Source: Dehalococcoidia bacterium
Lineage (GTDB): Bacteria; Chloroflexota; Dehalococcoidia; Plut-88900
Length of the DNA: 64,000 nt
Assembly (NCBI GenBank): GCA_965249275.1
Contig: CBDFLQ010000007.1
Span: forward strand, 160,001-224,000
Direction of reading: 5' to 3'
Of the stretch, positions 7,269 to 34,216 are shown piece by piece. The notes under the pieces were generated by a model, which worked only from the letters and a program-made list of their open reading frames with translations, searched no databases and was not told where the DNA came from. A program made the translations under genes and the position numbers. Every line of letters begins with the position of its first letter. The first letter of the stretch is position 1.

Positions 7269-7269
7269 C

Positions 7270-12703: not shown

Positions 12704-12864
12704 CCGTGCCTGCCCAGTCCCCACGCCCGCACACCTTGACCCGCAGAACACTGAATGCGGTAACCTCCGGGCCTGTCCGTCCCCTCTCCCTTAAAGGCCC
12801 AAAGGCGTCGTAGACCCGCCTTTAGCGGAAGAGGGGGCCAGGGGGAGAGGGTTCCCTATCCGCT

Positions 12865-13779: not shown

Positions 13780-13849
13780 CTTCGATTCCTTTCCTGCCTT
13801 GTCATTTTCTCCCTCCGACACTCTTATACCAACTGGTGCTGGACGGGCC

Positions 13850-13888
13850 GGGGCCGCTCGTGCTGAGCCCGTCGAAGTATGAGCGGGG
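13850..13888 (-). repeat. REP-B palindrome (CCCCGCTCATACTTCGACGGGCTCAGCACGAGCGGCCCC), reverse orientation
   Basis: Forward copies at about 22168, 23403, 24069, 25432, 32958, 41361, 52545, 53690-54011 (x4), 56372, 61934; variant B' at 9791 (reverse), 16589, 16817, 33004, 52405. Confidence 0.85.
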
Positions 13889-14042
13889 CGGGGGCCAATC
13901 CCCTCTCCCTCGGCGGAAACTTTGTACAACTGTCATTCCGAGGCCCCGCGAGGAATCTGGGGCTGGGTCCCATCCCCTCTCCCTTGACGGGAGTCGTAGA
14001 TGCGCCGAGGCGTGAGGGCTAGGGCTAGGGTGAACTTCTCCC

Positions 14043-16498: not shown

Positions 16499-16939
16499 TA
16501 GATTCCTCGCGGGGCATCGGAATGACAGGGTTAAGGGGGTTGGAGTGGGGGAGGGGCGGACGCGACGGATCGGCAATGCGTGGACTGCCCCCGCTCGACC
16601 CTTCGACGGAGCTCAGGGTGAGCGGCCCTTCCCCAAGGATGGATTCACGCCTCGGCGCATCTTTGACCGGCTCTCTCGGCAGTCGGAATGGCGGAGGGGG
16701 AGGGAGTCCCGGCTCGGCGGGGGGGTGCGCCTTCAGGAGGGATGGATTCACGCCTTGGCGCATCTGCGACCTGCCTCCGCAGGAAAGACGGATGAGGGGT
16801 GGCAGTGTGGGGCGGTCCCCGCTCGCCCTTCGACCCGCCTCAGCGGACTTACAGCAAGCTCAGGGTGAGCGGCCCCTCACAGGGATGGATTCCGTCTCGG
16901 GGGCCGGAATGACGAGGTTGGAGAGGGAGGCGCGCTGGG

Positions 16940-19900
16940 TTAGGAGGGTTGTTGGGTGGGGCGGGGGGCGGCTGATACCATCTGGGCTGCGACCAGCTGG
17001 GCGTAGAGGCCGTTTCGTTCCATCAACTCGTCGTGGCTGCCCTCTTCGACTTTGCGACCACGGTCGAGGACTATCAACTTGTCGGCGTCTCGGACTGTGG
17101 AGAGCCGGTGGGCGATGATGACTGTGCTTCTGCCGGACATCAGGCGGTTGAGGGCCTGTCGCACCTGGTGCTCGCTGACGGCGTCGAGATGGGAGGTGGC
17201 TTCGTCGAGGATGAGGACTGGGGCGTTCTTTAAGAGGGCTCGGGCGATGGAGATGCGTTGGCGCTGACCGCCGGAGAGCTGCATTCCCCGCTCGCCGACC
17301 ATGGTGTCGTAGCCCTCAGGGAAAGAGGATACGAAGCCGTGAGCATTGGCCTGCTGGGCGGCTTCCTCGATCTCTTCCTGGGAAGCCCCGAATTTGCCCA
17401 AGGCGATGTTGTCCCCGATGCTGGCGTTGAAGAGATAGGTGTCCTGGGTGACGAAGGCGATGCTGTCTCGTAGGGGGTCGAGCCGGAATTCCTTCAGGTT
17501 GTGATTGCCCAGGGATACCTCGCCGGACTGAGGATCCCAAAAGCGCATTAGGAGATAGGCGCAGGTGCTCTTACCCGCCCCCGACCTTCCGACAAGGGCC
17601 ACGGTCTGCCCGGGCTCGATGGTGAAGCTGAGATCGGAGACGGCCTGGGGAAGGCCCGGACCGTAGGCGAAGGAAGTGCCTTCGAAGCGGACCAAGGGCG
17701 CTGTGGGCACTGCAACCTCTCCGGGTGCAGCTACGCCGGGACCGTCCTGGACGGACATAGGTTCATCGTGGACGGCGAAGACGCGGCGGCCTGCGGCAAG
17801 GGTCTCCATGAGGTCCTTGCCGGTGCGTGCGAGGTCTGATACGGGAGAGAAGGTGGAGAGGGCAAGGAGGGCGGCAAGGGGCAGGTCAGGACGGTCCATC
17901 CTGCCTTCCAAAACTAGCCATGCGCCCATTGCCAGTACCGCAAGGCCCCCAAGCCCCGTGATCGATTCTATGAAGGAGGTCTGCGACTCCTGGGCCTTCT
18001 TGAACTTGAGCTGGCTCCCTGCGAAGTCCCAACCCCGTTCTCGGATGTCGCCGGTCCTTGCGGGGCCCTGATCGAAGGCGGATATCTCCCGCATTCCCTG
18101 GATGTTATCGACCATCTGGGCATGGATGCCGCCGAGCTTGCTCAGCACTTCGTCGCCGAGACGTTCGTTGGTCTTCTGGGCGTAGAAGGGGCGGATTGCA
18201 ACGGCGAAGAGGAAAGGCAAAAGAACAATGGCGAGGGGCCAGGAGATGAGGGCAAGGGTGATGAGGACGGCAAGGGGCACGACAAAGGCCACGAAGGCCG
18301 GGCTGATGGTGTGGGCGAAGAAATACTCGATCTTCTCGATGTCTCCGCCGACGACACCTACGATGTCCCCAGACCTACGTTTAACCAGATAGGCGGGGGC
18401 TATGGCGTCCATCTTGCGGTACATGTCGATACGCATCTCGGCCAGGAGCCTGTAGGCGAGGTCGTGGGCGAGCCAGCCCTCGGCCCAAGTGAAGAATGCG
18501 GTGAGCGGGGCAAAGACCGCGAGGAGGATGAGGTATAGGGTCAGGTCTCCGCCCCGGAACACTTCGCCGACCAGCAACGCGCTGATCACGCCAAGTCCGA
18601 TTATGGAGCCGTGATGGGCAATGCCCAAGAGGAAAGTGACAGTCTGCTGTTTCCACCAGGGGACGATAAGTGTCATCAACCTCCGGAGGATCGTGAACGC
18701 GCCCATTGGATAAGAAGCCTCGAGAGCGGCAGGCGCAGGCAGGGGTTCCTCCTCGTGGGGTGGGGAGGCGAGGCCATCGACGGCGCTGGTGAGCTGGTCT
18801 ACAGTTGCGAGATTTGCCGGGCGGGAGGCAAACCCGGCGGTCTGCTGGTCGGCCATGAGCCGGGCGTAGATACCGTCGGCGGCGATAAGCTCGTCGTGGG
18901 AGCCTATTTCGACGAGATGGCTGTCTTCCAGGACGAGGATACGGTCGGCACCGACGATGCTGGAGAGGCGGTGGGCGATTATCAGGGTTGTGCGGCCTTG
19001 CATGAGCCGGTCCAGGGCTTCCTGGATTACGGCCTCGTTTTCGGCGTCCACGCTGGACAGGGCCTCGTCGAGGATAAGGATTGGGGCATCCTTCAGGAGG
19101 GCTCGAGCGATGGCGATGCGCTGCCGCTGGCCGCCCGAGAGGCGGATAGCCCTCTCACCAACATAGGTGTCGTAGCCCTGGGGGAGCTCGGAGATGAACT
19201 CGTGGGCATTGGCGGCTCTTGCGGCGGCTTCCAATTGTTCCTGGGTGGCGTCGCCCTTGCCGAACCTGAGGTTGTCGGCGACGGTGCCATGAAAGAGGTA
19301 GGTGTCCTGGGTGACGACCGCGATCTGCTCCCGGATTCGTTCGAGGGGAAGGTCTTTCAAGTCCTGTCCGCCGAGAAGAATGCGGCCCTTCTGGGGATCG
19401 AAGAAGCGATATGCCAGCCAGACGAGGGTCGATTTTCCTGCACCACTTGGCCCCGCCACACCTAGCTTTTCACCCTTGCCCAGGGTGAACGATACGTTCT
19501 CAAGGGCGTTGCCCCGGCCCTGATTGTAGCCGAAGGTAACGTTTTCGAAGCGGATTTCGGCGGCGAGGGGAGCGGTATTAGGGGTGTCGGGAGTGGGTGT
19601 GTTCCTGGGGCCTTCGATCTCTACGGGCTCTGCCATGAGGTTGAAGATGCTCTGCGCGGCTGCACTTGCGATCATGCCTTTGTGATAGAGCTGGGTCAGT
19701 TCCCGGAGAGGCCTGAAGACCTCGACGCCGAACATCATGACGATCAGGAGAGTTCGAATCTCCATGTCACCGGCGCTGACCCGGGCTGCTCCCACGCCGA
19801 GGGCGACGGCTGCACCGGCAGAGATTCCCAGCACGGTAACGCCGCCGGTGGCAATGTTGGCGGCGAGGACACCCATAGTGCTTCGATATAGGGCACGGGC

Positions 19901-20575
19901 CTTGTCCGCCAGCCGATCGCCGTGCCGGCCACTTTGGCCGTAGGCCTTCAGGGTGGCAAGACCCTGCACACCGTCCAGGAAGTCGGCGCCCAGGGAGCCG
20001 TAGGAGCGGTAGCGGTGCATGCTGCTCTTCTGGTTCCAGCTGTGGAAGACCGCCGGAGCGACGAGGGTGAAGAGGGCGAAGCCGAGGAAGATAAGAGCAA
20101 TGGGCAGGTCCAGGATGGCCATGAATACGAAGATGAGAATCGGGGCGACGGCGGCAATGATGATCTGGGGAAGGTATTGGCCGAAGAAGGTCTCCAGGCC
20201 CTCGACGCCATCGCCGAGGGTGAGGATCACGCCACCTGTGCGACGCTGGTCGAAGTGACCCGGGCCAAGGGCTAGGCAGTGCTGATAAAGATTCTCACGA
20301 ATCTTTATCTTGACGATGTTGGAAGTGTGATGAGCGTAGCTGTTCTGCAGGTATTGGAATACTCCTCGGACGCCGATGAGGATGGCGACGCCGATCATGG
20401 GAAAAGCAAGGGAGGAGTACTCGGCTTGTCCGCGAAAGACCCGGGCGATGACTATGCCGAAGATAGCGAGGCCGGCGACTCCAGCGCCAACGGCAATAAG
20501 CCCCAGCACTGTGGAAAGAAAGATACGGAGCCGAACGCCCTGCGTAAGCTGGAACAGTCTCAGATCGAAGTACAT
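16940..20575 (-). CDS. Single-chain double ABC transporter (TMD-NBD-TMD-NBD), CydD/CydC-like exporter fold
   Basis: Two Walker A motifs (GPSGAGKS, GRSGAGKS), two LSGGQRQR, two ILDEA; two TM blocks; ATG 20575 (MYFDLRL). Confidence 0.88.
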   Translation of the reverse strand: MYFDLRLFQLTQGVRLRIFLSTVLGLIAVGAGVAGLAIFGIVIARVFRGQAEYSSLAFPMIGVAILIGVRGVFQYLQNSYAHHTSNIVKIKIRENLYQHCLALGPGHFDQRRTGGVILTLGDGVEGLETFFGQYLPQIIIAAVAPILIFVFMAILDLPIALIFLGFALFTLVAPAVFHSWNQKSSMHRYRSYGSLGADFLDGVQGLATLKAYGQSGRHGDRLADKARALYRSTMGVLAANIATGGVTVLGISAGAAVALGVGAARVSAGDMEIRTLLIVMMFGVEVFRPLRELTQLYHKGMIASAAAQSIFNLMAEPVEIEGPRNTPTPDTPNTAPLAAEIRFENVTFGYNQGRGNALENVSFTLGKGEKLGVAGPSGAGKSTLVWLAYRFFDPQKGRILLGGQDLKDLPLERIREQIAVVTQDTYLFHGTVADNLRFGKGDATQEQLEAAARAANAHEFISELPQGYDTYVGERAIRLSGGQRQRIAIARALLKDAPILILDEALSSVDAENEAVIQEALDRLMQGRTTLIIAHRLSSIVGADRILVLEDSHLVEIGSHDELIAADGIYARLMADQQTAGFASRPANLATVDQLTSAVDGLASPPHEEEPLPAPAALEASYPMGAFTILRRLMTLIVPWWKQQTVTFLLGIAHHGSIIGLGVISALLVGEVFRGGDLTLYLILLAVFAPLTAFFTWAEGWLAHDLAYRLLAEMRIDMYRKMDAIAPAYLVKRRSGDIVGVVGGDIEKIEYFFAHTISPAFVAFVVPLAVLITLALISWPLAIVLLPFLFAVAIRPFYAQKTNERLGDEVLSKLGGIHAQMVDNIQGMREISAFDQGPARTGDIRERGWDFAGSQLKFKKAQESQTSFIESITGLGGLAVLAMGAWLVLEGRMDRPDLPLAALLALSTFSPVSDLARTGKDLMETLAAGRRVFAVHDEPMSVQDGPGVAAPGEVAVPTAPLVRFEGTSFAYGPGLPQAVSDLSFTIEPGQTVALVGRSGAGKSTCAYLLMRFWDPQSGEVSLGNHNLKEFRLDPLRDSIAFVTQDTYLFNASIGDNIALGKFGASQEEIEEAAQQANAHGFVSSFPEGYDTMVGERGMQLSGGQRQRISIARALLKNAPVLILDEATSHLDAVSEHQVRQALNRLMSGRSTVIIAHRLSTVRDADKLIVLDRGRKVEEGSHDELMERNGLYAQLVAAQMVSAAPRPTQQPS

Positions 20576-20647
20576 GAAGCCTCTAGGCCAGTTTGTCGTA
20601 GAAAGAGCCCTGGCGCAAGGGTTGCTAGCCGGGGCTCTGTTCGGTGG

Positions 20648-20676
20648 ATTATACAGTCGGGCACAGAATACGGCAA
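20648..20676 (-). promoter_or_regulatory. Putative sigma70 promoter of the ABC transporter
   Basis: Minus strand TTGCCG-N17-TATAAT; a divergent TTGACT-N17-TAGCGT lies at 20697-20725 (+). Confidence 0.6.
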
Positions 20677-20821
20677 ACGAGGAGCGGTGCGTTGTATTGA
20701 CTCCCCAAGTGGATTCGCTTAGCGTATCCGGCTGTATGTGGGGAGGAGCGACCAGCCGCTCGCCCCTATGGGTTGGAGGTTCACGGAACACAAGCAAGAA
20801 CGGAAAGGGTGCAAGAAGAAT

Positions 20822-21958
20822 ATGAAGGACTACATAGCCGTCGACGTGGACGGTCACATCATGGAGCCACCCGACCTTTTCGAAAATAACCTGGAACCGA
20901 AGTATCGGGACCGGGCCTATAAGCTCGTGTTGGACGACCAAGGGGTCGAGCACCCGGTTATGGACAACATATGGCTGGACGATACGAGGCCGGTGGGCAC
21001 AGTGTCGGTGTACGGCGCTGTTGACAAGCCCATGGAGGACTACCTGGCGGGGAAGGTGCACTACCGGGACTCGATGGTCCCGGGGGCATGGGTGCCGGAT
21101 GAAAGGCTCAAGGTGATGGACGAGGAGGGGATCGATATTGCGTTGTTCTACCCGTCGCTAGGTCTGGACTGGGAGAGCTCCAGCGACGACGCCGACCTCG
21201 TGGCGGCCCACTGCCGGGTGTACAACGACTGGCTGATCGACTTCTGCAGCACCGATCCCAGCCGACTAGTGCCGATAGCTCACGTGTCTTTCATGGATGT
21301 CGAGCAGGCGGTGGCGGAGACCAGGCGGGTGGCAGATCTTGGGGCGAAGGGACTGATGTTACTTGCGTTTCCGCCAAGAAAGGGTCAGCCGTATGGCGAG
21401 CCGGAGTTCGACCCGATATGGTCGGAAGCCGAAAGCCTCGGGCTGCCTGTCGGGGTACATGTTCACGGGGGCGGGACCCGATTTGGCGGTGATTATTTCT
21501 ACCCGCACCCCTGGAAGGCGTCTTGGTGGTGGTGGTTCGTCACGGCAGCGAAGTTTGTGGTGGACTCGATGACCTCGCTGTTCCAGGGAGGTCTTTTCGA
21601 CAGGTTCCCAAACCTTCAGGTGATCGCGTTGGAGGCAGGCTGCGGCTGGCTGGCCTACTGGCTGGAGCGGATGGACGAATATTTCGAAAGGTACGGCTTC
21701 GAGACGTCGATGCAGCTTAAGCCGAGCGAATACTTCAATCGACAATGCTGGATATCGATGGAGCCCAGCGAGAAGATTGGCCTTACGATGATGCAGCTTC
21801 TCGGGGCCGACCGGTTCCTCTGGGCTTCCGATTACCCCCACTCCGATGCAGAGATGGGGACCGTGGCACAACTGAAGAAGAACCTTGCCCCCCTTCCGGA
21901 TGCGGAGTTCCGAAAGATACTGGGGGAGAATGCGGTCAAGCTGTATCAGCTTGGGTGA
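20822..21958 (+). CDS. Amidohydrolase family protein (Amidohydro_2, ACMSD/LigW-like)
   Basis: DVDGHIMEP, MDEEGID, YNDW, PVGVH, LEAGCGW, WASDYPHSD. Confidence 0.9.
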   Translation: MKDYIAVDVDGHIMEPPDLFENNLEPKYRDRAYKLVLDDQGVEHPVMDNIWLDDTRPVGTVSVYGAVDKPMEDYLAGKVHYRDSMVPGAWVPDERLKVMDEEGIDIALFYPSLGLDWESSSDDADLVAAHCRVYNDWLIDFCSTDPSRLVPIAHVSFMDVEQAVAETRRVADLGAKGLMLLAFPPRKGQPYGEPEFDPIWSEAESLGLPVGVHVHGGGTRFGGDYFYPHPWKASWWWWFVTAAKFVVDSMTSLFQGGLFDRFPNLQVIALEAGCGWLAYWLERMDEYFERYGFETSMQLKPSEYFNRQCWISMEPSEKIGLTMMQLLGADRFLWASDYPHSDAEMGTVAQLKKNLAPLPDAEFRKILGENAVKLYQLG

Positions 21959-22464
21959 TTTTACATAATGCGTCGATGGGCGGTCTATGGCGAGGGTGGG
22001 ATGAGTGATTTTGTGAGGGACTTCGTTACATAAAGTGCGCGTTTGTCTTTTGGGATACATCCTCACTCTCTTCAGCGAGTCTTCGACCCTAGCCCTTTCC
22101 CGTCAAGAGAGCTTTGCACAACTACAGGTTGCCTCTGCTGTACTGTCCGGATCACGTAACCTCCACCCCCCGCTCATACTTCGAGAGCCTCAGCACGAGC
22201 GGCCCCGGCCCCACCGCGGGAGGTTAGGCAAAAATCTCATCAAGGGAGAGGGGATGGAACGCTCGCACATCATTCAGTTCTTGGGATCCCCTTCGAGAGC
22301 CTCAGGACAGGCTTCGACTTCGCTAACGCCACGGCGCATCTTCGACAGGGCGAGCGGAATACCCCGCCCCTGGGGATGGAGCCCGACTCGGGAGCAGAAA
22401 TGTCGGTTATGCAAGGGTCTCATACCGGAAACACAATGCGGGCTCATGCTGGAAAGGTGAATCG

Positions 22465-23385
22465 ATGCCAAAGATTGGACTGGTAGGGCTGGGAGTTATC
22501 GGGCGGATATACGCTGCCAACCTGACAAGGACTTTCGGGCCGATATATGTCTATGACAGCGTTCGGGAGCGGATGGCGGCAGTAGAGAAGCTGGGGGCTC
22601 TGGCGTCGGAGAGTGGGGCGGACTTGGCGAGGTTGTCGGAGGTGGTGTTGCTGGCGCTGCCAAACCCCGAAGCGGTGAGGGCGGCGGTAGATGGGAAGGA
22701 TGGCGTGTTAGAGGGGGCTCGGCCAGGGACAGTCATTGTGGACCTGAGCACCATTGACCCGAAGACTGCCATTGAGATGTATGCTTGGGCGAAGGAGCGG
22801 GGTGTTGACTACCTGGACTCTCCGATAAGCGGGGGGCAGCCAGGTGGGGCGGGCACCGACGGGGCGAAGGCGGCCAACGTAACCTTCATGGTGAGCGGGG
22901 ACCGAGGCGCATTCGAGAAGGCAAAGCCTGTGATGGAAGCGCTCGGCGAGAAGTTCTTCTTTCTGGGGGAGGCAGGGACGGGGACGAAGGTAAAGCTGCT
23001 GAGCAACTTCGTTAGTGGGATGGTCAACTTGATCTCGGCGGAAGCGTTTGCTCTCGGGGCGGCGGCGGGCATCGATGCGAAGACCCTGATGGACGTGTTT
23101 GACGAGACGGACGCCGACTGCTACTTCATGCAGAACTATGTCCGGCCGAGAATCGAGCGGGGTGATTTCGAGCCGGGCTTCTCGGTTGACCTGCAGTACA
23201 AGGACTTGAAGCTGACCAGCGAATGGAGCAGGGAGGAGGGGGTTCCCACCCCCATCAATGACCTGGGCGTGCAGCTATACCAGATGGCTCGGGCGGCGGG
23301 GCTGGGGCATAAGGACCTGGTGGAGTCGGTGAATTATTGGGCGCGGGTGTCGGGGGTGGAGTTGGTAACGGGTGACAGGGCTTGA
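22465..23385 (+). CDS. NAD(P)-dependent beta-hydroxyacid dehydrogenase (3-hydroxyisobutyrate DH family)
   Basis: IGLVGLGVIG, VDLSTI, LDSPISGG, KLLSN, KDL motifs. Confidence 0.9.
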   Translation: MPKIGLVGLGVIGRIYAANLTRTFGPIYVYDSVRERMAAVEKLGALASESGADLARLSEVVLLALPNPEAVRAAVDGKDGVLEGARPGTVIVDLSTIDPKTAIEMYAWAKERGVDYLDSPISGGQPGGAGTDGAKAANVTFMVSGDRGAFEKAKPVMEALGEKFFFLGEAGTGTKVKLLSNFVSGMVNLISAEAFALGAAAGIDAKTLMDVFDETDADCYFMQNYVRPRIERGDFEPGFSVDLQYKDLKLTSEWSREEGVPTPINDLGVQLYQMARAAGLGHKDLVESVNYWARVSGVELVTGDRA

Positions 23386-24110
23386 GCGCAGGCTCTAGCA
23401 CGCCGCTCATACTTCGATGCTTCATAGGCGGACTTGCAGCGGGCTAAGTATGAGCGGCCCCGCCTCCGGAGACTGGATTCACGCCATGGCGCACGCCAAA
23501 GGCGCATCCTCCCGAGGCGGACGTTCCGCTTGCAGCATCTTCGACCGGCTCGGAGGCCGAAATGACGGAGAGGGAGGGGCAGGATGAGGGTGTTTTAGGG
23601 GTGGGAGTCGTAGGGATGTACGTCCGGTAGGGATATATGCCTTAGGTTCCTCGCGGGGCATCGGAATGGCATGGTTGGGGTGGTGGGTTGGCGAAGAAGT
23701 TTCGCGGTGGACGCTTGTGCAACTCCGGGTTGGGGCGGAAACGCCCTGCCCATTCCGCTCTTGAGACCCTTCGACTCGGCTTACGCTATGGCGCATCTTC
23801 GACAGGGCGAGCGGAATGCCCCGCCTTTGGGGAGGTATTCACGCCTCGGCGCACGCCAAAGGCGCACTTTCAGCATCTTCGACCGGCTCGGAGGCCGGAA
23901 TGACGGAGAGGTAGGGGCAGGATGAAAAGGTTTTAGTGGTGGAGAGCGATATGGGTACGACTACTAGGGACATGCGCCTTAGATTCCTCGCGGAGCCTCG
24001 GAATGACAATGATTAGGGTGGTGGGTTGGGGGCGGAGGGACGTGACAGATTGGCAGTGCGTGGACTCCCCCCGCTCATACTTCGACGGGCTCAGCACGAG
24101 CGGCCCCGCC

Positions 24111-25256
24111 TCAGGACAGGCCGTAGAGGCGGGCGCAGTTGTCCCAGAGGATCTTTCGCAGGCTGTCGTGGGGGAAATCGAGGGTGAGTAGCATCTCCAC
24201 GGACTTGGGGTAGCGGCTGTCGGGGTGGGGGTAGTCGGTGGAAAAGACAATGTTGTCATCGCCAAGCCAGTCGATGGCATACTTGCCGGGCGCTTCGTCG
24301 GCCTCGACGGAGGTGAAGCACTGGCGTTTGAAGTACTCGGAGGGCATGAGGGGCAGCCTATCCTTGAGAATCGACTCCCTGTGCTCGTAGTGCTCGTCCA
24401 TGCGCCAGATCCAGAACGGCGACCAGCTGCAATTCCCTTCGAGGAAAGCGAACCTTAGAGTTGGAAATCTCTGGGTGACGCCCCCCATGATGATCGCGAG
24501 GCAGGCGTACATCTGCTCTATGGGATGGGCGGCCAGGTGCTCGGTAGTCCAGAGGTTTTCGTGGTTGCCGTCGAAACGTTCTCCCATAGCAACAGGAAGC
24601 TCACAGGGAGTGCCTTCGTGGAAACCGACGGCGAGGTCGAATGCCTGGCACTCGGCCCAAAGAGGGTCATAGTAGGGGTGGTTCCAGTTGCGGCCCTGGA
24701 CGGGGTTGGGGCGCAGGAATACGCCCTTGAAGCCGAAGTCCTGGGCCACGCGTCGGGTCTCCGCAATGGCGGCGTCTATATTCTGGGCAGGGACCATGCC
24801 CGAACCGAACATCCTCTTGGAGTCGCCCTGGCAGAACTCGGCGAGCCAGTCATTGTAGGCGCGCGATATGGCTGCTGCCAGCTGATCATCGTCGTAGACC
24901 TTGGCGTGGGCGAAGAGGCCCATGGAAGGGAAAAGCAAGGCCAGGTCTATCCCCTCAGCGTCCATGGCCTCGACCTGGGTGTCGGGGCCCCAGCCCCGGT
25001 CCTGGAAGGCGAGGAATTCATCGAACCTGCCGTAGCGCTTGGCTAATTCGACGTACATTTCCCCTTCGTCGGCGAAGTTGTCCTGATTGCGGGCGATGAC
25101 TCTACCATCGTGCTTGAGACGAAGGTCCATGAAGTACTCTTCCGCACCTACGGGGGCGAGGTCACGGAACTCGGGTGAGATGTAGGTCTGCCAGAGGTCG
25201 GCGGGCTCCATGACGTGCATGTCGCTGTCGATGACCTTGAAACCGTCCTTAGCCAT
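24111..25256 (-). CDS. Amidohydrolase family protein (Amidohydro_2)
   Basis: IDSDMHVMEP, MDAEGID, YNDWL, FLEGNCSW, FSTDYPHPD; ATG 25256 after AAGGAGG. Confidence 0.9.
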   Translation of the reverse strand: MAKDGFKVIDSDMHVMEPADLWQTYISPEFRDLAPVGAEEYFMDLRLKHDGRVIARNQDNFADEGEMYVELAKRYGRFDEFLAFQDRGWGPDTQVEAMDAEGIDLALLFPSMGLFAHAKVYDDDQLAAAISRAYNDWLAEFCQGDSKRMFGSGMVPAQNIDAAIAETRRVAQDFGFKGVFLRPNPVQGRNWNHPYYDPLWAECQAFDLAVGFHEGTPCELPVAMGERFDGNHENLWTTEHLAAHPIEQMYACLAIIMGGVTQRFPTLRFAFLEGNCSWSPFWIWRMDEHYEHRESILKDRLPLMPSEYFKRQCFTSVEADEAPGKYAIDWLGDDNIVFSTDYPHPDSRYPKSVEMLLTLDFPHDSLRKILWDNCARLYGLS

Positions 25257-25523
25257 TGCGGTGCCCTCCTTCGGGCTGGGGGTCTTTTGCAAGCCAGTAT
25301 CACTCTCTCGCGCCTCGGCGAGACTACGGCCTCAGCCCTCTCGCGCCTCGGCGCATCTCCGACCCATCGAGATATCTTTGCGTAACTGCTGATCACGCTA
25401 GTGGTGCCATCCAGGTTACCTGACGTCCCTCCCCCGCTCATACTTCGAGAGCCTCAGCACGAGCGGCCCCGGCCCCTCCGGCAGGCAGAGGTTTCCTTAG
25501 TGCATTGTCCACCTTGGGCGTGG

Positions 25524-26138
25524 CTACTGCAACGGGTTGAAACGCATTGCGAGGCGAGGAAGCCAGTTACACGGGCGGTCGGGGAGGGGTCCTCGGACGA
25601 TTTCGAAGCCGGCGCGTTTGAAGAGGGGCTCGGTTCCGAAAAAGATATTGTCGGCGCCGGTGCGCTCGTTTCCGGCTCGGGGGTAGGCCTCCACGACAGG
25701 AGCGCCGTACTCGAATGCATATCGAGCCGCTGCCCGAATAAGGGCCACGGCGACGCCCTGGCCGCGTGCATTCCTGTGGACGGTCACGCAAGGGATAACC
25801 CAGACATCCTGATCGTCCACCCTGGGTGTGGCCCGGGACTTCTCGATGCGAGCAAGCTCGCTCCGGGGGGCGACGGCAACCCAGCCCACGGGGTCTTCTC
25901 CCTGGAAGGCGAGGAGGCCCGGAGCGTAAGAGCGTCGGGCCAGGTCTTCCATAGCTGCACGGCGGCGCTGAGAGCCGGACCCTTCGCCGGGGAGCTTCTT
26001 CCATTGGGCGCCTGGGATACGAGGGAACATGCACCAGCAGGTACTGCCCCAGCTTCCCCGGAGGACTGTCCTCATGCTGTCCAACAGGTCGGGGGTCAGG
26101 GGTCTGATGTCCAGAGTAGATGTCCCGGTAGTAGTCAT
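25524..26138 (-). CDS. GNAT-family N-acetyltransferase
   Basis: CWCM motif, VGWVAVAPR, RGQGVA acetyl-CoA loop, VEAYP, FKRAGF. Confidence 0.85.
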   Translation of the reverse strand: MTTTGTSTLDIRPLTPDLLDSMRTVLRGSWGSTCWCMFPRIPGAQWKKLPGEGSGSQRRRAAMEDLARRSYAPGLLAFQGEDPVGWVAVAPRSELARIEKSRATPRVDDQDVWVIPCVTVHRNARGQGVAVALIRAAARYAFEYGAPVVEAYPRAGNERTGADNIFFGTEPLFKRAGFEIVRGPLPDRPCNWLPRLAMRFNPLQ

Positions 26139-26323
26139 AAGCTGATTACCCCCTGACTGCAAGTCTATATGGCCAAATCAGGATTAGGATGCGAAAGTAT
26201 CCCGCGTAAGGATAACAGGTAAAAAAGCCCGGTTTGACCTATGGGTAACAAGGGGCCCGAAGCGTTGGGGTGGGGGCTTAGAAGTTACCGATCGGGAGGG
26301 GGCCTATGGCCTTGCGACCGTGG

Positions 26324-26587
26324 CTACCAGCGGGGGCGGCGGGGCTCTTTGGGTCGGGCCCGGTCTACGGTAAGGGGTCTGCCCTTGAGCTCTTTACCAT
26401 TCAGGCCTTGAACCGCAGCTTCACCTTCGCGCTCGTCAGTCATCTCGACGAAACCGAAACCGCGTGAGCGGCCGGAATAGGGGTCGGTGATCACGCGTGC
26501 CGAGTCGACAGTGCCGAAGGGGTCGAAAGCTTCTTTCAACTCCTCATCGGTCAGACTATAGGGAAGGTTGCCGACGAAAATGTTCAT
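26324..26587 (-). CDS. RRM-domain RNA-binding protein
   Basis: RNP2 IFVGNL and RNP1 RGFGFVEM; GGAGG RBS. Confidence 0.95.
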   Translation of the reverse strand: MNIFVGNLPYSLTDEELKEAFDPFGTVDSARVITDPYSGRSRGFGFVEMTDEREGEAAVQGLNGKELKGRPLTVDRARPKEPRRPRW

Positions 26588-26927
26588 GAACAGGTCCTCC
26601 AGGGCCAAGTATCTCCTGCTTCGAAACCCCTATCTTCCAAGCTGGAAGCAAGCGTTTACTACGCCCTTTCGGGGATACCGAAGATGGGGAGCATTCTACC
26701 ATACAAAAGATAAATGCAACTACCAGAACACATTGTTACGCATTTCCCAAAGACTCTTACATAAGGTGTATTTAAGGGCTTAGCCAGCGAGTGGAGCAGG
26801 GGCAACGTTGGGAAACAATGCGTCCCGTTTGCCGGCAGTCGTATAATCACCAGAACTCCTTGGAAGGGCGACCGTCGCCCTTCCGGAACATCAAAGAGAC
26901 CGCCGGGGAATTGGGGGATATTGGGTC

Positions 26928-27308
26928 ATGGGCGCGCGGCGTCAACTTATCGACGTAACTTATTCGTTCTTAGTCGCGCTAGGGATTGCGGTGATTATGA
27001 TTATGATCGTCACCGCGTTCCAGGACCGGCCCGACCTGGATGACGAGACACGGGAGCGGGTAGGGTTTCTTCTGCTGTTCCCGGTGTCTATTGCGATAAT
27101 AACGGGGACGATAGGCTTCGGGCTGTCGCTGATAAATTGGAGGGAATGGCGCCTGTTGATACTGGCGTTCCTGGGGGTGATAAGCCTAGTAAATGCAATA
27201 CTTGACGTATCGAACGCGCTTACCTATTTTGGCGTATCGATTTTCCTAGTGTTCGGAATGTATTTTGCCGTGGAGTGGTTCGGGGTCCGGCGTCGGCGCA
27301 GGGTCTAA
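26928..27308 (+). CDS. Hypothetical membrane protein (about 4 TM)
   Basis: Four hydrophobic stretches, basic tail; TATAAT at 26842-26847. Confidence 0.65.
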   Translation: MGARRQLIDVTYSFLVALGIAVIMIMIVTAFQDRPDLDDETRERVGFLLLFPVSIAIITGTIGFGLSLINWREWRLLILAFLGVISLVNAILDVSNALTYFGVSIFLVFGMYFAVEWFGVRRRRRV

Positions 27309-27316
27309 GGCCGGGC

Positions 27317-27946
27317 CTAAGCCCGGAAGGCGAGCATAAGACCATCCCGCAGGGTAAGCAGAACGTTGTTGACCCGGGGGTCATTGGTAACGTAATCGTT
27401 CAAGGCGTTTATGGCCTTATCGCTCTCATCTTTCGGGTCCAAAACCTTCCCTCCCCACAGGGTGTTGTCCACTGCGATCACGCCTCTGGGCGCCAGCAAG
27501 TCGATGCATTTTACATAATAGTTCAGGTAGTTGGTCTTGTCGGCATCGATGAAGACGAGGTCGAAGGGGCCTTGGAGGGTGTCGATAGTGTCGAGAGCGG
27601 GGCCGACTCTTAGGTCGATCTTCTTGCCGTGGGGTGTCTTGGCGAAGAACTCGCGGGCCAGGGATCGAGGGGCTATGTCGCAGGTTATGAGTTCACCGTC
27701 CTCCGGGAGAGCATGTGCCATCATGAGGGCGCTGAATCCTGTGAAGGTGCCAATTTCCAGGACTCGCTTGGCTCCGGAAACTCGGATGAGTGCCTGGAGG
27801 AGGGTGCCGATGAGGCGGTCGGAAAGCATTTCGGCGTCGGGTGCCGAGTTGTAGGTCGCCTTTCTGAGTTCCTCCATGACTGGGGGGAGGGGGGTGGTGT
27901 GGTCGAAGGCGTAGTCGTCGATTTCTCGGGGGACGATGCCGATCAT
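27317..27946 (-). CDS. O-methyltransferase (caffeoyl-CoA OMT-like)
   Basis: VLEIGTFTGFS, FDLVFIDADK, DNTLWGG. Confidence 0.93.
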   Translation of the reverse strand: MIGIVPREIDDYAFDHTTPLPPVMEELRKATYNSAPDAEMLSDRLIGTLLQALIRVSGAKRVLEIGTFTGFSALMMAHALPEDGELITCDIAPRSLAREFFAKTPHGKKIDLRVGPALDTIDTLQGPFDLVFIDADKTNYLNYYVKCIDLLAPRGVIAVDNTLWGGKVLDPKDESDKAINALNDYVTNDPRVNNVLLTLRDGLMLAFRA

Positions 27947-27980
27947 GGATTACTCCTGTGGGGGGTGGGGGTCAATGGGT

Positions 27981-29114
27981 TTAGTTGAACCGGGGTATGA
28001 CCTGCTCGGTGAAGAGGGTTAGGCTTCGCATCACCTGCTGGAAGCTTAGCCCCGGGAAATTCAGGAAGAGGGCGATGTGCTGGCAGTTGAGCTCTGTGCG
28101 GTAGCGTTCGATCTGTTCTGCTACCGAGTCCGGGGTGCCGACCATTATGAGGTCGTGCTTCCTCTGGAAGTCGAACCAGTCCAGGTCTAAATCGCCGTCT
28201 TCTATTTCTCCCTCTATAAACGAATCTCTGGATGCCTTCATCGGGTCGCGCTTGTTCCACACGCCGAGCATGTTGGCCCCCGGCCTGACGGCCTCTAAGG
28301 CTTCTTCCATGGTGTCGGCGACGTAGGTGGCGATCATCACGGAGAGCTTATCGCCGAAGTTGTTCTCTTCGCCTCTCGCTTCCTTAGCGGCGTCGTAATA
28401 GGTGTTCCAGATTTCCCTTATCTTGCCGAGGGAGACGGTCTGGCACATGGTGGATATGCCTCGTCTGCCGGCCAACTTGTGGGAACTGTTGGAGGTTGAC
28501 ATCTGAAAGATGGGTGGGTGGGGTTTCTGGACAGGCTTGGGGTGTACGCCGAGAGCGACCATCTCGCCATCGTCGGCGTGGTAACGGGGGTCTCGGACCC
28601 ATTCGTTGGGTTCGTGCCAGCCGGGTTCAGGGAAAGTAAAGTGGTTGCCCTGATATTGGAAAGCTTCCTGTTTCCAGGCGTCTATGATGACATCCAAGGC
28701 CTCGTTGAAGAACTCGGAGTTGACCTTGGGGTTTCGCCGGTCTCCCGCCGAACTGAACTGGGCGGAGGCCCGGGTGTCGAAGCCACGGGCGATGCCGAAG
28801 TCGACACGGCCGTCAGTGAAATTGTCCAGGAGCGCGATGTCCTCCGCGACGCGCAGGGGATGCCAGTCGGGGAGGATGGTGCCGCACTGGCCGATTCTGA
28901 GGTGGTCGCTGTTCTTGATCAGGCCCGCGCCCATGAGAATGGGGTTGGGGGAGGCGCGGTACCAGCCGTCCCAGGCGAAGTGGTGCTCGGCGAGCCAGAG
29001 GCCTGTGAAGCCTCCCTGGTCGATGAGCTTAACCTCCTGGTGCATCTCGTCCATCAGGGTGTCCCAGGAATACTGCTCTCCGACGTGATAGTAGGGTGTG
29101 CAATCGAACCTCAT
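27981..29114 (-). CDS. LLM-class flavin-dependent oxidoreductase (tandem paralog 4)
   Basis: WLAEHHFAWDGW, PLRVAED, GRVDFGIARG, PKPVQKPHPP. Confidence 0.92.
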   Translation of the reverse strand: MRFDCTPYYHVGEQYSWDTLMDEMHQEVKLIDQGGFTGLWLAEHHFAWDGWYRASPNPILMGAGLIKNSDHLRIGQCGTILPDWHPLRVAEDIALLDNFTDGRVDFGIARGFDTRASAQFSSAGDRRNPKVNSEFFNEALDVIIDAWKQEAFQYQGNHFTFPEPGWHEPNEWVRDPRYHADDGEMVALGVHPKPVQKPHPPIFQMSTSNSSHKLAGRRGISTMCQTVSLGKIREIWNTYYDAAKEARGEENNFGDKLSVMIATYVADTMEEALEAVRPGANMLGVWNKRDPMKASRDSFIEGEIEDGDLDLDWFDFQRKHDLIMVGTPDSVAEQIERYRTELNCQHIALFLNFPGLSFQQVMRSLTLFTEQVIPRFN

Positions 29115-29163
29115 TTGTCACCTCGTGTCTGGTCTGGGGTGGATGATCTTTGAAGAGTCCGAA

Positions 29164-29203
29164 TCACCCTCACCCTAGCCCTCTCTCGTCAAGGGATAGG
29201 GGA
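29164..29203 (+). repeat. REP-C palindrome (TCACCCTCACCCTAGCCCTCTCCCGTCAAGGGAGAGGGGA)
   Basis: Forward copies at 29164, 30415, 50298, 59121/60456 (split), 61882; reverse copies at 13972 and 15217 (truncated). Confidence 0.85.
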
Positions 29204-29212
29204 CTATTTTTG

Positions 29213-30346
29213 TTAAGCGAACTTGGGGATGATGCGGTCGGAGAAGAGGTGGAGGGAGTTCATGACCTGCTGGAATGATAGGCCGGGGAAGTTGAGGAAA
29301 AGGGCGATGTGCTGGCAGCGGGTCTTTGATTGGATGCGCTCAATCTGCTCGGAAACCGAGTCAGGTGAGCCGACCATGATCAGGTCGTGCTTGAGCTGGA
29401 AGTCGAACCAGTCGGAATCCAGGTCTCCTTCTTCCATCTCCTCTTCGATCAGTGTGGCCTGCCGAGCCTTGTGAGGGTTTACCGACGACCAGGCAGCGAG
29501 GCGGTTGGCACCGGGCCGCACGGCTTGAACTGCCTCTTCGTAGGTCTCGGCGAGGAAGGTTGGGCGCATGACGGCGACGCCCTCTCCGGTAGGGACGGGA
29601 CGCCCAAGCCTCCCGGAGGCTGCCTCGTTGTGGGCGGCGAAGGCCTCGTTGATTCTACCGGGGGACAGGGAGGCGCACATGGCGCTGTAACCCTTCTCTC
29701 CCGCGTAGCCGAAGGAGCCGACGGTTTCGGCCATGATGTAGACGGGAGGCCGGGGTTGTTGGTAGGGGCGGGGTGTGACGCCGAGGGCGATCAACTCACC
29801 GTCATCGGCGTGGTACTTGGGATCCCGAACCAGGGGGTTGGACTCATACCAGCCGGGTGTCGGGTAGGTGTAGAACTCGCCCTTGTAGGAAAAGGCGTCG
29901 TTTTCCAGGGCCTTGACTATGATTTCGAGGGCTTCTCGGAAGAGGGCGCGGTTGTGTTCCGGGTCTCGGCGGTCGGCTTCCTTGAAAAACTGGATGGTGG
30001 AGCGGGTGTTGATTCCCCGCCCTGCGCCGAAGTCGACGCGGCCCTTTGTCAGCTGGTCCAGGATGGCGATGTCCTCGGCGACGCGGATGGGGTTCCAGTC
30101 GGGGATGATGGTGCCGCACTGGCCGACACGCATCCTGTCGCTTTCGGCAATGAGGTCAGCGCCGACGAGGATGGGGTCGGTCGGGGCACGGTACCAGCCG
30201 TCCCAGGCGAAATGGTGCTCAGCGAGCCAGAGACCGGTGAAGCCGCCCTGGTCCATAAGGCGCACTTCTTCCCGCATCTCGCGGACCAAGGTCTGCCAGG
30301 AATAGTCCTCGCCGACGTGATAGTAGGGTGTGCTGTCGAACCTCAT
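29213..30346 (-). CDS. LLM-class flavin-dependent oxidoreductase (tandem paralog 3)
   Basis: Same motifs; MRFDSTPYYHVGE start. Confidence 0.92.
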   Translation of the reverse strand: MRFDSTPYYHVGEDYSWQTLVREMREEVRLMDQGGFTGLWLAEHHFAWDGWYRAPTDPILVGADLIAESDRMRVGQCGTIIPDWNPIRVAEDIAILDQLTKGRVDFGAGRGINTRSTIQFFKEADRRDPEHNRALFREALEIIVKALENDAFSYKGEFYTYPTPGWYESNPLVRDPKYHADDGELIALGVTPRPYQQPRPPVYIMAETVGSFGYAGEKGYSAMCASLSPGRINEAFAAHNEAASGRLGRPVPTGEGVAVMRPTFLAETYEEAVQAVRPGANRLAAWSSVNPHKARQATLIEEEMEEGDLDSDWFDFQLKHDLIMVGSPDSVSEQIERIQSKTRCQHIALFLNFPGLSFQQVMNSLHLFSDRIIPKFA

Positions 30347-30482
30347 ATTCAACCTATTGCCGGGACTAGGAGCGCTGCCTAACGTTAAGTCTGCGGAGCT
30401 TTAAGGGATGGGAATCACCCTCACCCTAACCCTCTCACGCCTCGGCGCATCTACGACCCGTCAAGGGAGAGGGGATCAATTA

Positions 30483-31613
30483 TTAACTGAAGCGGGGGAT
30501 TACTTTTGAAGAGGCCAAGTCGAGAGAGTGCATGACCTGTTGGAAGGATAGGAGCGGGATATTTAGGAAGAAAGCGAGGTGGGGGCATCCGGTCTCGGTC
30601 TCCAGACGCTCGATCTGCTCGGAGACGGAATCAGGGGAGCCGACCAGGATGAGGTCGTGCTTGAGTTGGAAGTCGAACCAGTCCAAGTCCAGGTCGCCTT
30701 CTTCCAGCTCCTCTTCGCTGACCATTATCTTGCGGACTTTGTCGGGGTCGGTGGTTATCCAGGAGGCGAGGAGGTTTGTGCCTTCCCGGGCGTCGGCGAC
30801 GGCCTGTTCGTAGCTATCGGCTATATAGGTGGGGCGCATCACGGCCAGGTTTTGCCCGTAGGGCACATCGTGGCCTGCTGCTTCCGAGGCGGCGTTGTTG
30901 TAAGCCCGCCAGGCGTCTTTGATGCGCCCGTGGGAGATAGAGAAGCACATGGCTCCAATGCCCATGCGGGCTGAGTAGGCGTGGGAGCTCGAGGACTCGA
31001 CCATGTTGAAAACGGGAGGGTGGGGCCGTTGGAAGGGTTTCGGGGTGAGGCCCAGGGCCTTAAGCTCGCTGGTTTCGCTGTGAAATCTGGAGTCGCGGCC
31101 CAAGGGGTTGGTCTCCTGCCAGCCGGGAGCGGGATAGGTGAAGAACTCACCCTTGTATGAGAAGGCATCGTTCCGCCAAGCGCCGAGAATGACCTCAAGG
31201 GTCTCGTTGAAGAGGGAGCGGTGCTGTTCGTTTCGGCGGTCGGCTTCTTCCCGGAATTGGATGGTGGCACGATTGTTGATGCCTCGGGCCACGCCGAAAT
31301 CGACCCGGCCTCTGGTGAGTTGGTCGAGGAGGGCGATGTCCTCGGCAACGCGGATGGGGTTCCAGTCGGGGAGGATGGTGCCACACTGGCCGACTCGAAG
31401 CCGGTCACTTTCGTTGATCAGGTCGGCTCCGAGGAGGATGGGGTTGGGGGAGGCGCGGTACCAGCCGTCCCAGTGGAAGTGGTGCTCGGCGAGCCAGGTG
31501 CCGGTGAATCCACCCTGGTCCATGAGGCGGACCTCTTCCCGCATCTCGTCAACGAGGGTCTCCCAATCGTAGTCCTCGCCGACGTGGTAGTAAGGAGTGG
31601 AGTCGAACCGCAT
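30483..31613 (-). CDS. LLM-class flavin-dependent oxidoreductase (tandem paralog 2)
   Basis: Same motifs; MRFDSTPYYHVGE start; GGGAG RBS. Confidence 0.92.
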   Translation of the reverse strand: MRFDSTPYYHVGEDYDWETLVDEMREEVRLMDQGGFTGTWLAEHHFHWDGWYRASPNPILLGADLINESDRLRVGQCGTILPDWNPIRVAEDIALLDQLTRGRVDFGVARGINNRATIQFREEADRRNEQHRSLFNETLEVILGAWRNDAFSYKGEFFTYPAPGWQETNPLGRDSRFHSETSELKALGLTPKPFQRPHPPVFNMVESSSSHAYSARMGIGAMCFSISHGRIKDAWRAYNNAASEAAGHDVPYGQNLAVMRPTYIADSYEQAVADAREGTNLLASWITTDPDKVRKIMVSEEELEEGDLDLDWFDFQLKHDLILVGSPDSVSEQIERLETETGCPHLAFFLNIPLLSFQQVMHSLDLASSKVIPRFS

Positions 31614-31709
31614 ACCTAGTCTCCCGAGTCGAGTGTGCGTTGATGTTTAAGCAGGGTGCCGCCGCGGTGATTATATACCATGCCCTACGATTGCCGGGCG
31701 TTCCCCCTG

Positions 31710-32843: not shown

Positions 32844-33086
32844 GGATGGTCTCGGAGGATTGTGGGTGGTTTTGCATGGCTGCTGAGTGTATGGGGAGTG
32901 TATCTTTGGGGTGGGGTGGCGTCAACGGGGGTGTCGGAGGCATAGACGTGATCCCCGCCCCGCTCATACTTCAACGGGCTCAGCACGAGCGGCCCCTCCC
33001 CCACCCCGCTCGACCCTTCGACTTGGCTTCCGCCTCAGCGGATCTGCGACAGGGTGGGCGGCCACTCCACCCCAGGGCAACCACTA

Positions 33087-33220
33087 GGAGCCTGTCTCAT
33101 AAGTCCGTTAGACACAGCCCGATTGGATATTCTTGACCAATGCGACGGGTGCCGTAGGCACGAATCCAAGTCGTATAAGAGCGGGAAGAGGGGCATGGGG
33201 CGACTTTTGAGACAGGCTCC
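33087..33220. mobile_element. 134-bp MITE with IS1182-like ends
   Basis: Perfect 13-bp IRs GGAGCCTGTCTCA / TGAGACAGGCTCC; TA on both sides; no transposase. Confidence 0.8.
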
Positions 33221-33309
33221 TAGGGATTGTCCCCCTACAGGGGAGGGAGCCCGGCCCCTCCCGGGGATGGATTCCGGCTCGGGGGCCGGAATGACGGGGG
33301 GGGGTGGGG

Positions 33310-34188: not shown

Positions 34189-34216
34189 GTCATCCTCCTA
34201 GGCGATGCAACTACGA

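Follow-up and report, generated by a model that had tools for sequence, protein, structure and literature searches.

Intergenic DNA of a Dehalococcoidia bacterium (assembly GCA_965249275.1) carries units of 21–22 nucleotides (nt) that are present or absent as exact blocks, in one orientation, at fixed sites in larger palindromic host repeats and directly behind the hairpin of a unit already in residence. We studied them from a 725-nt spacer (positions 23386–24110) within a 64,000-nt window of this genome (contig C7, positions 160001–224000; positions without a contig name are those of the window), where units lie nested inside one another. We consider it probable that the units are non-autonomous mobile DNA, moved as single strands by a trans-acting nuclease outside the Y1/RAYT family, and that their ladder of nests arose stepwise before being copied along with its host. 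The units appear to be among the smallest mobile DNA known, though nested repeats of comparably tiny size reportedly occur in cyanobacteria. The assembly studied (G000; 2.9 Mb, 59% GC, 7 contigs, 87% complete) was compared with eight genomes of the same genus, six of them single contigs. Two of these, G002 and G005, match G000 at about 92% identity in their genes and are syntenic with the window from 16.8 kb onward; for length classes, skew and polarity, the closed genome of G005 (3.15 Mb) was represented by an evenly spaced sample of 1.28 Mb (64 samples of 20 kb).

At least five unit families share one plan: a GC stem of 4–5 bp, a variable loop of 2–4 nt and a family-specific tail of 8–9 nt, 21–22 nt in total. 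F1 reads [A/C]CGCC-N2-3-GGCG[C/G] followed by the tail ATCTNCGAC, and F2 joins an F1-type hairpin to the tail ACTT[T/G]CAGC. F3 is TCC[T/G]CC-N3-GGCGG with A[C/T]GTTCC[A/G], F4 is CTC[T/G]CC-N3-4-CGAG with [C/T]CT[A/T]CG[A/G], and F5 is GCCGCC-N3-GGCGG with ACTTTCA. At one mismatch or fewer, a census by strand and local GC skew found 88 F1, 37 F2, 33 F3, 47 F4 and 12 F5 units; the stem ACGCC/GGCGC was counted 38 times and CCGCC/GGCGG 18 times. Loops vary by species, being TC in G000, G002 and G005, CA in G001, and ATA, AAT or ACA in G004.

The hosts are larger palindromic repeats, either SRM-type or REP-like hairpins. REP1 and REP2 (CCGCTC-nnn-CTTCGA-n7-^-CAGnnnGAGCGG, the caret marking the insertion site) take inserts in the loop, and hostB is a longer relative of both. 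HostE has two sites (CACCCTCA^CCCTAGCCCTCT^CCCGTCAAGGGAGAGGGG). HostA (GGATT^CCGGCTCGGGGGCCGGAATGAC) has an 8-bp stem whose 5' arm is split by the insert. The entry point of inner units in nests falls within a window of 3 nt (GCA) where the resident hairpin ends on its 3' side, approximately GGC-G-C-A^. Junctions slide by 0–3 nt, with no target duplication of fixed length. We found no motif common to the targets; T^C is the reading at most F1 sites but not at nested ones. Every target detected is either within a palindromic repeat or behind the hairpin of a unit, in a search that is biased toward repeated contexts. CTTCGAC, a heptamer in the F1 tail, recurs genome-wide in the loops of REP1, REP2 and hostB, 2–3 nt behind a GC-rich arm (for example, 23755–23803), and could be a recognition motif shared by tail and loops.

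The original prediction described micro-inserts within micro-inserts at three places, and all three held. At 23841–23883 a 21-nt unit is split by a 22-nt unit, exactly to the base, with a junction that slides by 3 nt (GCA); the same double nest lies reversed at 10939–10981, as read from the sequence; and the 65 nt at 23481–23545 contain a third 22-nt unit within the second. In the triple nest the elements run hairpin, hairpin, hairpin, tail, tail, tail, so the units are nested and not placed head-to-tail. The second hostA copy of the spacer belongs to a 76-nt repeat that is 89% alike. Coordinates are collected in Table 1.

Table 1. Units, nests, host hairpins and neighbouring gene in the window
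Feature	Position	Strand	Details
Double nest F1[F2]	10939-10981	-	In hostA copy; inner hairpin decayed (AAATGAGC); event at C7:170947
REP1-type hairpin, 13-bp arms	23402-23458	+	F2-like unit (CATAGGCGGACTTGCAGC) in loop
HostA copy, SRM-type hairpin GGATTC^CGGCTCGGAGGCCGAAATGAC	23469-23568	+	Triple nest interrupts 5' arm; identical hairpin flanks GIY-YIG gene in G004
Triple nest F1[F2[F3]], 65 nt	23481-23545	+	ACGCCATGGCGC / ACGCCAAAGGCGCA / TCCTCCCGAGGCGGACGTTCCG / CTTGCAGC / ATCTTCGAC; lengths begin 12 + 13 + A + 22
F1 parts of triple nest	23481-23492; 23537-23545	+	Hairpin; tail ATCTTCGAC
F2 parts of triple nest	23493-23505 (+A 23506); 23529-23536	+	Hairpin; tail CTTGCAGC
F3 unit, innermost, 22 nt	23507-23528	+	TCCTCCCGAGGCGGACGTTCCG; 22-nt event at C7:183507
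Single F1 unit TACGCTATGGCGCATCTTCGA	23782-23802	+	In loop of hostB hairpin, arms 23751-23760 / 23809-23818; 4 empty paralogues
Second hostA copy	23832-23904	+	Holds 23841-23883 nest; insert removed, ATTCCGGC / GCCGGAAT form perfect 8-bp arms
Double nest F1[F2], 43 nt	23841-23883	+	F1 hairpin ACGCCTCGGCGC 23841-23852; F2 ACGCCAAAGGCGCACTTTCAGC, 22 nt, 23853-23874; F1 tail ATCTTCGAC 23875-23883
Empty REP1 hairpin	24067-24110	+	Site between 24091 and 24092; filled orthologue in G002, G005
Amidohydrolase gene	24111-25292	-	
F1 unit in hostE	30437-30457	+	Entire composite missing at orthologous site of G002, G005
F1 unit in REP2 loop	33030-33050	+	
F1 unit in REP1 loop	56396-56417	+	Composite missing in G002, G005
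HostE hairpin, empty F1 site (ccctct^cccatcgaggg)	60448-60490	+	Filled orthologue in G002, G005
F1 unit in REP1 loop	61959-61979	+	8 empty paralogues

If units enter whole, length variants of the hosts should differ in steps of 21–22 nt, the check proposed with the original prediction. We compiled a genome-wide indel spectrum from pairs of 12-mers that lie 1–150 nt apart at one place and are directly adjacent at another more than 400 nt away, a design that sees repeated contexts only and is biased toward them. Events peaked sharply at 21 nt (39) and 22 nt (36), against 1 at 19, 2 at 20, 4 at 23, 14 at 24, 1 at 25 and none at 26 nt, with smaller peaks at 43 (5), 44 (2), 64 (3), 65 (8) and 66 nt (3). 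Lengths in multiples of three (24, 72, 144) stem from coding tandem repeats. A family tail motif was present in 68 of the 75 events of 21 or 22 nt. Double nests account for four of the five 43-nt events, F2[F3] inside F1 for both events of 44 nt, and triple nests for two of the eight at 65 nt, the other six of which are unrelated repeats. The gap between F1 hairpin and F1 tail tells the same lengths: 0 in 56 cases, 21–22 nt in 7 and 44 nt in 2, with 1–2 matches in all for reversed-tail controls.

At seven host sites defined by their flanks, inserts indeed fell into classes of 0, 21–22, 42–44 and 65 nt, the remaining lengths being scattered with at most three copies each. HostA was empty (0 nt) in 28 copies and held one unit (21 nt) in 7, two (42–43 nt) in 4 and three (65 nt) in 4. 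The corresponding counts were 67, 17 (20–22 nt), 2 (42–43 nt) and 1 (65 nt) for REP1, and 77, 28 (20–22 nt), 5 (41–44 nt) and 2 (65–66 nt) for REP2. HostB had 22 empty copies, 10 with one unit (21–22 nt) and 2 with two (41/44 nt). For hostE, where the flank definition offsets lengths by 1 nt, 46 copies were empty (1 nt), 10 held one unit (22–24 nt), 3 two (44 nt) and 1 three (65 nt). HostE5 gave 52 empty, 14 with one unit (21 nt), 3 with two (42 nt) and 4 others of 24–25 nt; hostF5 gave 1 empty and 8 filled by one unit (22 nt). The G005 sample showed the same length classes, including one triple nest in hostA.

These classes leave little room for chance resemblance or simple slippage duplication, which we regard as refuted for the bulk of events and extremely unlikely overall. 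Slippage would account for the 5 of 75 events that match the adjacent block at 75% or more, as a tandem duplication would, and one tail duplication was seen (ATCTTCGACATCTTCGAC); the other 70 are not tandem-like, lengths are not continuous, and reversed-motif controls gave 1–2 matches. As a separate observation, a tandem repeat with a 21-nt period (GACTTGATTGAAGGATGATTA-like) lies at 44630–44720 and differs in copy number among G000, G002 and G005. It bears no relation to the hairpin units, and its period could confound tests for length classes.

The order of nesting was equally regular. Iterative peeling of units at one mismatch or fewer returned 86 F1, 32 F2 and 24 F3 simple units and nests of the types F2[F3] (6), F1[F2] (5), F1[F1] (3) and F1[F2[F3]] (2), with no instance of the reverse order. 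With blocks shifted by 4 nt as a control, no F1 or F2 nests appeared, and the sole F3 hits were two tandem-array artefacts. All 13 heterologous nests thus follow F1>F2>F3, each inner unit directly behind the outer hairpin and in the same orientation, as expected if nesting order is consistent. No inverted compound was seen among nested or head-to-tail units. The proposal that the inserting activity recognises small hairpins, including its own product, stood in part: inner units do sit directly behind resident hairpins, but the 'own product' is mostly that of another family (same-family nests number 3), and the other targets are loops or arms of larger palindromes.

With looser matching, hostA contains three double nests and four inserts of length 65 (three clear triple nests and a fourth, at C6-741145, that is degenerate); F1[F2] occurs twice in hostE and once in hostB/REP2, and thus in three hosts. 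In G000 as in G005, every triple nest sits in hostA and carries an almost identical F3, which makes a single origin, followed by copying along with the host, the most likely history. The suggestion that nests are an ordered record of successive events accordingly needs qualifying: stepwise lengths, order and one-unit differences between orthologous sites speak for it, but nested copies are not independent events.

One could go further and suppose that the micro-units have no mobility of their own and that movement is confined to the larger composites: a few ancient indels in SRM or REP-like hosts would have multiplied as the hosts did, possibly through gene conversion or enzymes of the Ssn or another type. 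The hostA triple nests at four or more loci and in G005 agree with this, as does a weak tendency of filled hostA copies to cluster (permutation P = 0.096; 3 distinct inserts among 7), and whole host-plus-unit composites have been gained or lost between species. Single units tell otherwise. F1 alone occurs in at least eight different host contexts, and target contexts number at least 12 in all. In four of the five hosts tested, flanks of filled copies were no more alike than those of filled and empty copies (permutation P = 0.56 for REP1, 0.75 for REP2, 0.30 for hostB and 0.999 for hostE5), and their inserts are diverse (13 distinct of 17, 23 of 28, 9 of 10 and 10 of 14, respectively). For single units, as against nests, these results favour a picture of independent events, and in our judgement movement of composites alone is quite unlikely.

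A further argument against it comes from the relatives, where three orthologous sites differ by exactly one unit. The REP1 hairpin beside the amidohydrolase gene is empty in G000 (24091/24092) and holds CCCACCTCGGCGGATCTGCGA, a 21-nt F1 unit, in G002 and G005. The hostE site near 60455 is likewise empty in G000 and filled by a 21-nt F1 unit in G002 and G005. At the third site, a 22-nt unit (ATCGAAGATCCGCCGCAGGAGG, plus strand) is present in G002 and missing from G005 and G000 (C7:251073–251489), between flanks that are near-identical over more than 100 nt. Two empty sites and one filled favour insertion in the G002 line, and this clean difference within near-identical orthologous sequence speaks against the composites-only account; the other two sites point the same way. 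One hostE hairpin contains, at 59155–60447, an IS481-like element, with a 394-aa DDE/rve transposase open reading frame (59181–60365, minus strand) and ends TGTAC..GGGGACATGGGTAACA; it is missing at the orthologous site of G002 and G005, and solo copies of its end motif lie elsewhere in the genome (for example, near C5:569100).

The spacer itself, which separates convergent genes (a 3-hydroxyisobutyrate-dehydrogenase-like gene and the amidohydrolase gene), measures 725 nt in G000, 452 nt in G001, 332 nt in G007, 78 nt in G002 and G005, and 4–5 nt in G004, G006 and G008. Most other spacers vary as widely within the genus. Exact F1 copies number 57 in G000, 83 in G001, 61 in G002, 100 in G004, 51 in G005, 40 in G007 and 2 in G008, against none in three sister genera and a single match in about 190 other genomes of the class; the reversed pattern gave one match in 201 genomes. 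Nested F1[F2] (up to two mismatches) occurs 4 times in G001, 6 in G002 and 7 in G005, and not in G004 or G007. Outside G000, the nested pattern was found in only three other genomes of a collection of 185,579 species. Of 24 public sequencing runs, four were compared with window positions 16800–36700, and all four consist of short Logan contigs from related strains. At 23781 a loose end runs on into the empty hostB form, but the repeats are multi-copy and the loose end is not assignable to this locus.

Two other differences between the genomes were noted in the window. Four REP1 hairpins at 53692–53988, spaced exactly 94 nt apart, form a tandem array of REP1 plus spacer, and the matching gap between aligned blocks is 60 nt in G005 and 165 nt in G002. 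Directly upstream of the amidohydrolase gene, a 33-nt block (..CGCGCCTCGGCGAGACTACGGCCTCAG.., 25303–25335) is present in G000 and G002 and missing from G005; it consists of an F4-like unit and duplicated flank.

Units and hosts are strongly polar. The hairpin-to-tail strand is the locally G-rich strand for 72 of 88 F1, 35 of 37 F2, 20 of 33 F3, 42 of 47 F4 and 10 of 12 F5 units. Among intergenic units, 138 run with the GC skew and 22 against it, with 40:1 where the neighbouring genes converge and 22:2 where they diverge. Units in the G005 sample stand at 99:5. Hosts follow the same rule (with versus against skew, REP1 87:5, REP2 78:9, hostD 98:6, hostE 59:2 and empty hostA 29:2). In the window, the minus strand carries all 8 elements at 1158–14013 and the plus strand all 46 at 16493–61979, with the change of skew sign at about 16 kb. 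Genes themselves have no strand bias relative to skew (1165 of 2316, from crude gene calls), and units between co-directional genes lie 43 with and 52 against the direction of the genes. Units and hosts thus track skew and not genes, which argues for a strand asymmetry of the replication type, not of transcription.

The skew flip near 16 kb was considered as a replication origin and rejected: there is no dnaA there, and two DDE transposase genes and a synteny break are found instead. DDE_Tnp_1/DUF772 genes lie at 11107–12693 (plus strand) and 15470–16423 (minus strand), at the flip of skew and repeat orientation, and synteny with G002 and G005 ends nearby, at about 16.8 kb. The flip is probably the breakpoint of an inversion or other rearrangement.

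The same orientation data bear on whether the units are selected cis-acting modules, such as terminators, RNA stabilisers or protein-binding sites, so that their build would reflect function and not mobility. Their mostly intergenic position would suit such a role, and REP-type elements elsewhere have been proposed to act in RNA (PMC3733652). Their disregard for gene direction is hard to square with it, as are their weak folding, the absence of any matching Rfam family in the window and orthologous intergenic regions that range from 4–5 to 725 nt within the genus. We rate this explanation as very unlikely.

Nuclease and transposase searches of the genus genomes tied no enzyme to the F units. 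Y1/RAYT transposases (PF01797) were found in none of the nine genomes, six of them single-contig, while the same search matched 6 of 14 named control genomes. TnpB (PF07282) exceeded the cut-off in one of nine genomes, with one further weak match, and IS110 (PF01548) was found in four of nine, with none in G000, G001 or G007; neither tracks the units. Eleven genes in G000 are flanked by F units on both sides, none of them nuclease-like.

Candidates did emerge for the hosts. Chenal et al. 2025 (PMC11893778) describe the motif NTS (CGTCATTCCCGCGMAVGCGGGAATCYRG) and SsnA, a 94-aa GIY-YIG protein that binds NTS only as single-stranded DNA and on one strand, cutting a few bases upstream; ssn genes typically have the motif on both flanks. 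Read on the other strand, hostA (GTCATTCCGGCCCCCGAGCCGGAATC) and hostD (GTCATTCCGAGGCTCCGCGAGGAATC) are of the NTS type, with GTCATTCC-stem-loop-GGAATC in the corresponding orientation. Small single-domain GIY-YIG genes (94–100 aa; L034, L035, L041, L042 and L043) lie between SRM-type hairpins in relatives: hostA in G004, hostD in G002 and G005, and variants in G003 and G008. We recognised these proteins by matches to PF01541 and call them Ssn-like from motif layout and protein size; sequence searches of NCBIfam and PDB with them returned nothing useful. A second type of small GIY-YIG gene (L032 in G003, L033 in G005) is flanked by REP2/hostB-type hairpins that share CTTCGAC with the F1 tail, a pairing that the available part of PMC11893778 does not describe. 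On this sequence evidence the hosts have plausible partner nucleases in the genus, and the micro-inserts have none.

The missing transposases would also suit copy-choice replication, which needs no dedicated enzyme. A polymerase would stall at a small hairpin, switch to a repeat with the same stem, copy hairpin and tail, and return at a microhomology of 1–3 nt, the blocks being unit-sized because the templates are. Junctions often slide by 1–3 nt (C at most F1 sites and GCA at three of six F2-in-F1 events), inner and outer hairpins have stems in common (ACGCC/GGCGC), and a replication-type polarity fits hairpins on one template strand. However, many targets have no stem in common with the insert (ggatt^ccggctc, ccctct^cccgtc and ttattcag^ttggg), and several events have no junction microhomology at all. 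Nor does copy-choice predict the strict order F1>F2>F3, or the lack of F2[F2] despite identical hairpins. We find template switching doubtful, and it is the weightiest of the rival explanations, followed by movement of composites only, cis-acting modules and slippage.

Movement by a trans-acting nuclease, which we prefer, has to be set against a number of results that weigh against it. The enzyme searches gave no Y1/RAYT, TnpB, IS110 or unit-flanked candidate. In the 87%-complete G000 assembly there is no repeat-flanked GIY-YIG gene, and tblastn with small GIY-YIG proteins of eight relatives gave one weak match in G000 (C6:408444–408632), not repeat-flanked. The positions also disagree, as F1 enters hostA inside the 3' arm of the Ssn-type strand and Ssn is reported to cut upstream. 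Insertion and precise excision can be separated only by parsimony, and at one site. Nested copies are largely copies of one composite, and head-to-tail arrangements occur too (F3 arrays at C7:805080 and C5:296498, F4+F4' in hostE5, and F2-like plus F1 in REP loops).

The structural and strand evidence likewise has weak points for this reading. The commonest F3 and F4 stems have a T-C mismatch (16 versus 5 and 17 versus 3, respectively), which makes for weak stems; a view of CCTCC/GGCGG as a G-T wobble that marks the active strand was dropped when pair counting gave this mismatch. Nested stretches did not fold clearly better than shuffled sequence on either strand (z = -2.0, -1.1, -0.8 and -0.7), so that 'hairpin' here denotes dyad symmetry and not a proven structure. 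Skew in closed G005 is patchy: its sign changes at least 12 times across the 64 samples of 20 kb, and repeat orientation flips along with it. There is thus no simple two-arm picture, and the replication strand is read from local skew; the patchiness suggests many inversions or an unusual replication history. Instead of insertion chemistry, the source of polarity could be selection against one orientation (for example, one in which a cleavable strand would be exposed in single-stranded form) or inheritance from the hosts.

Our preferred mechanism would run as follows. While DNA is being replicated, a nuclease acting in trans would move the units in single-stranded form, either cutting and rejoining them or copying them in, at a folded hairpin or next to one. 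This activity may come from the genus's small Ssn-like GIY-YIG enzymes, which act on single strands and are the only candidates seen. Successive insertions would have built F1[F2[F3]] at least once in a hostA copy, and the composite would then have been copied around with its host. A bolder version would make the units the smallest self-contained mobile DNA yet found in bacteria, without a transposase of any known family: a hairpin-guided single-strand nuclease, perhaps Ssn-like GIY-YIG, would act at the replication fork and cut on one template strand, the hairpin base of one family would be the homing site of the next, and the ladders would be a readable, ordered record of invasions. We think this version unlikely.

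The small dispersed repeats (SDRs) of heterocyst-forming cyanobacteria, reportedly 21–27 nt long, are said to have been proposed as mobile (Elhai et al. 2008, Genome Res 18:1484) and to occur inside other repeats as well. The units described here resemble them in size (21–22 nt), in presence or absence as exact blocks and in precise insertion into palindromic targets. By this analogy, drawn from size and insertion pattern across different phyla, SDRs appear to be the closest precedent. We know of no enzyme for SDRs. One of them, SDR5, inserts between the third and fourth base of HIP1, according to PMC4390886. The hairpin-plus-tail plan of five families, the order F1>F2>F3, insertion behind a resident hairpin and skew polarity are features not known from SDR work. 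The Delihas 2011 review does not mention SDRs.

GTAG repeats are reported in Chloroflexi (Di Nocera et al. 2013, PMC3733652), among them GTAG-23 of T. roseum, which is 'inserted within small palindromes'; the same paper leaves open how CGTC repeats spread. GTAG-REP and REPIN-RAYT systems (PMC3733652; Bertels and Rainey 2011, PMC3116915) resemble our units in being short GC-rich palindromes that bear a conserved unpaired tag on one side, in their repeated and mostly extragenic distribution, and in the coexistence, often in clusters, of several families. Read on the other strand, F1 begins GTCG[T/A/C]AGAT and F4 begins GCCGTAGG, both GTAG-like. Read in reverse, however, exact F1 tails most often give GAAG (31), ahead of GTAG (15) and GCAG (13); F4 has GTAG (CCTACGG), and the tails of F2, F3 and F5 do not fit. 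Differences are a stem of 4–5 bp, against mostly 6–9 in GTAG REPs, the lack of RAYT in nine of nine genomes, single units in one orientation with no inverted doublets of the REPIN kind, and the entry of a small unit into a larger palindrome and into other units.

Likeness to SRM/Ssn is confined to hosts A and D, which have the NTS form (CGTCATTCC..GGAATC), and to the layout NTS-ssnA-NTS in G002, G003, G004, G005 and G008. The 21–22-nt inserts have no ATTCC/GGAAT arms, and the available part of PMC11893778 makes no mention of nesting, 'lagging' or 'leading strand'. Compared with miniature inverted-repeat transposable elements, usually longer than 70 nt and bounded by terminal inverted repeats, the units are 21–22 nt long and have a junction ambiguity of 0–3 nt with no duplication of fixed length. 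'Peel and paste' transposition of IS200/IS605 elements involves hairpin recognition, no target duplication and strand-specific insertion, with orientation tied to the direction of replication. The units differ in their size of 21–22 nt and in having one hairpin each instead of two ends with subterminal hairpins, and no Y1 transposase was found. In fungal mitochondria, mobile GC clusters and double-hairpin elements are very small GC-rich palindromes, gained and lost over time and able to nest; they differ in residing in AT-rich organellar genomes and in their unrelated sequences.

Literature on nested REPs and on repeats in Dehalococcoidia, in the library searched, yielded no description of this system. 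New here are a hairpin-plus-tail plan common to the families, nesting that is strict in order and position, an almost complete polarity and the lack of RAYT in closed genomes. These symbiont-type Dehalococcoidia also show a very rapid turnover of intergenic DNA, one orthologous spacer measuring anything between 4 and 725 nt across the genus. The units address the open question of how REP-like repeats spread without RAYT, and the genus offers a compact, testable case, combining closed genomes, five tiny families, empty and filled sites that are both paralogous and orthologous, and nuclease genes between host hairpins. If an enzyme were matched to a unit, a minimal substrate for single-strand DNA insertion would be defined, and the enzyme could also extend the sequence-specific single-stranded DNA tools proposed for Ssn.

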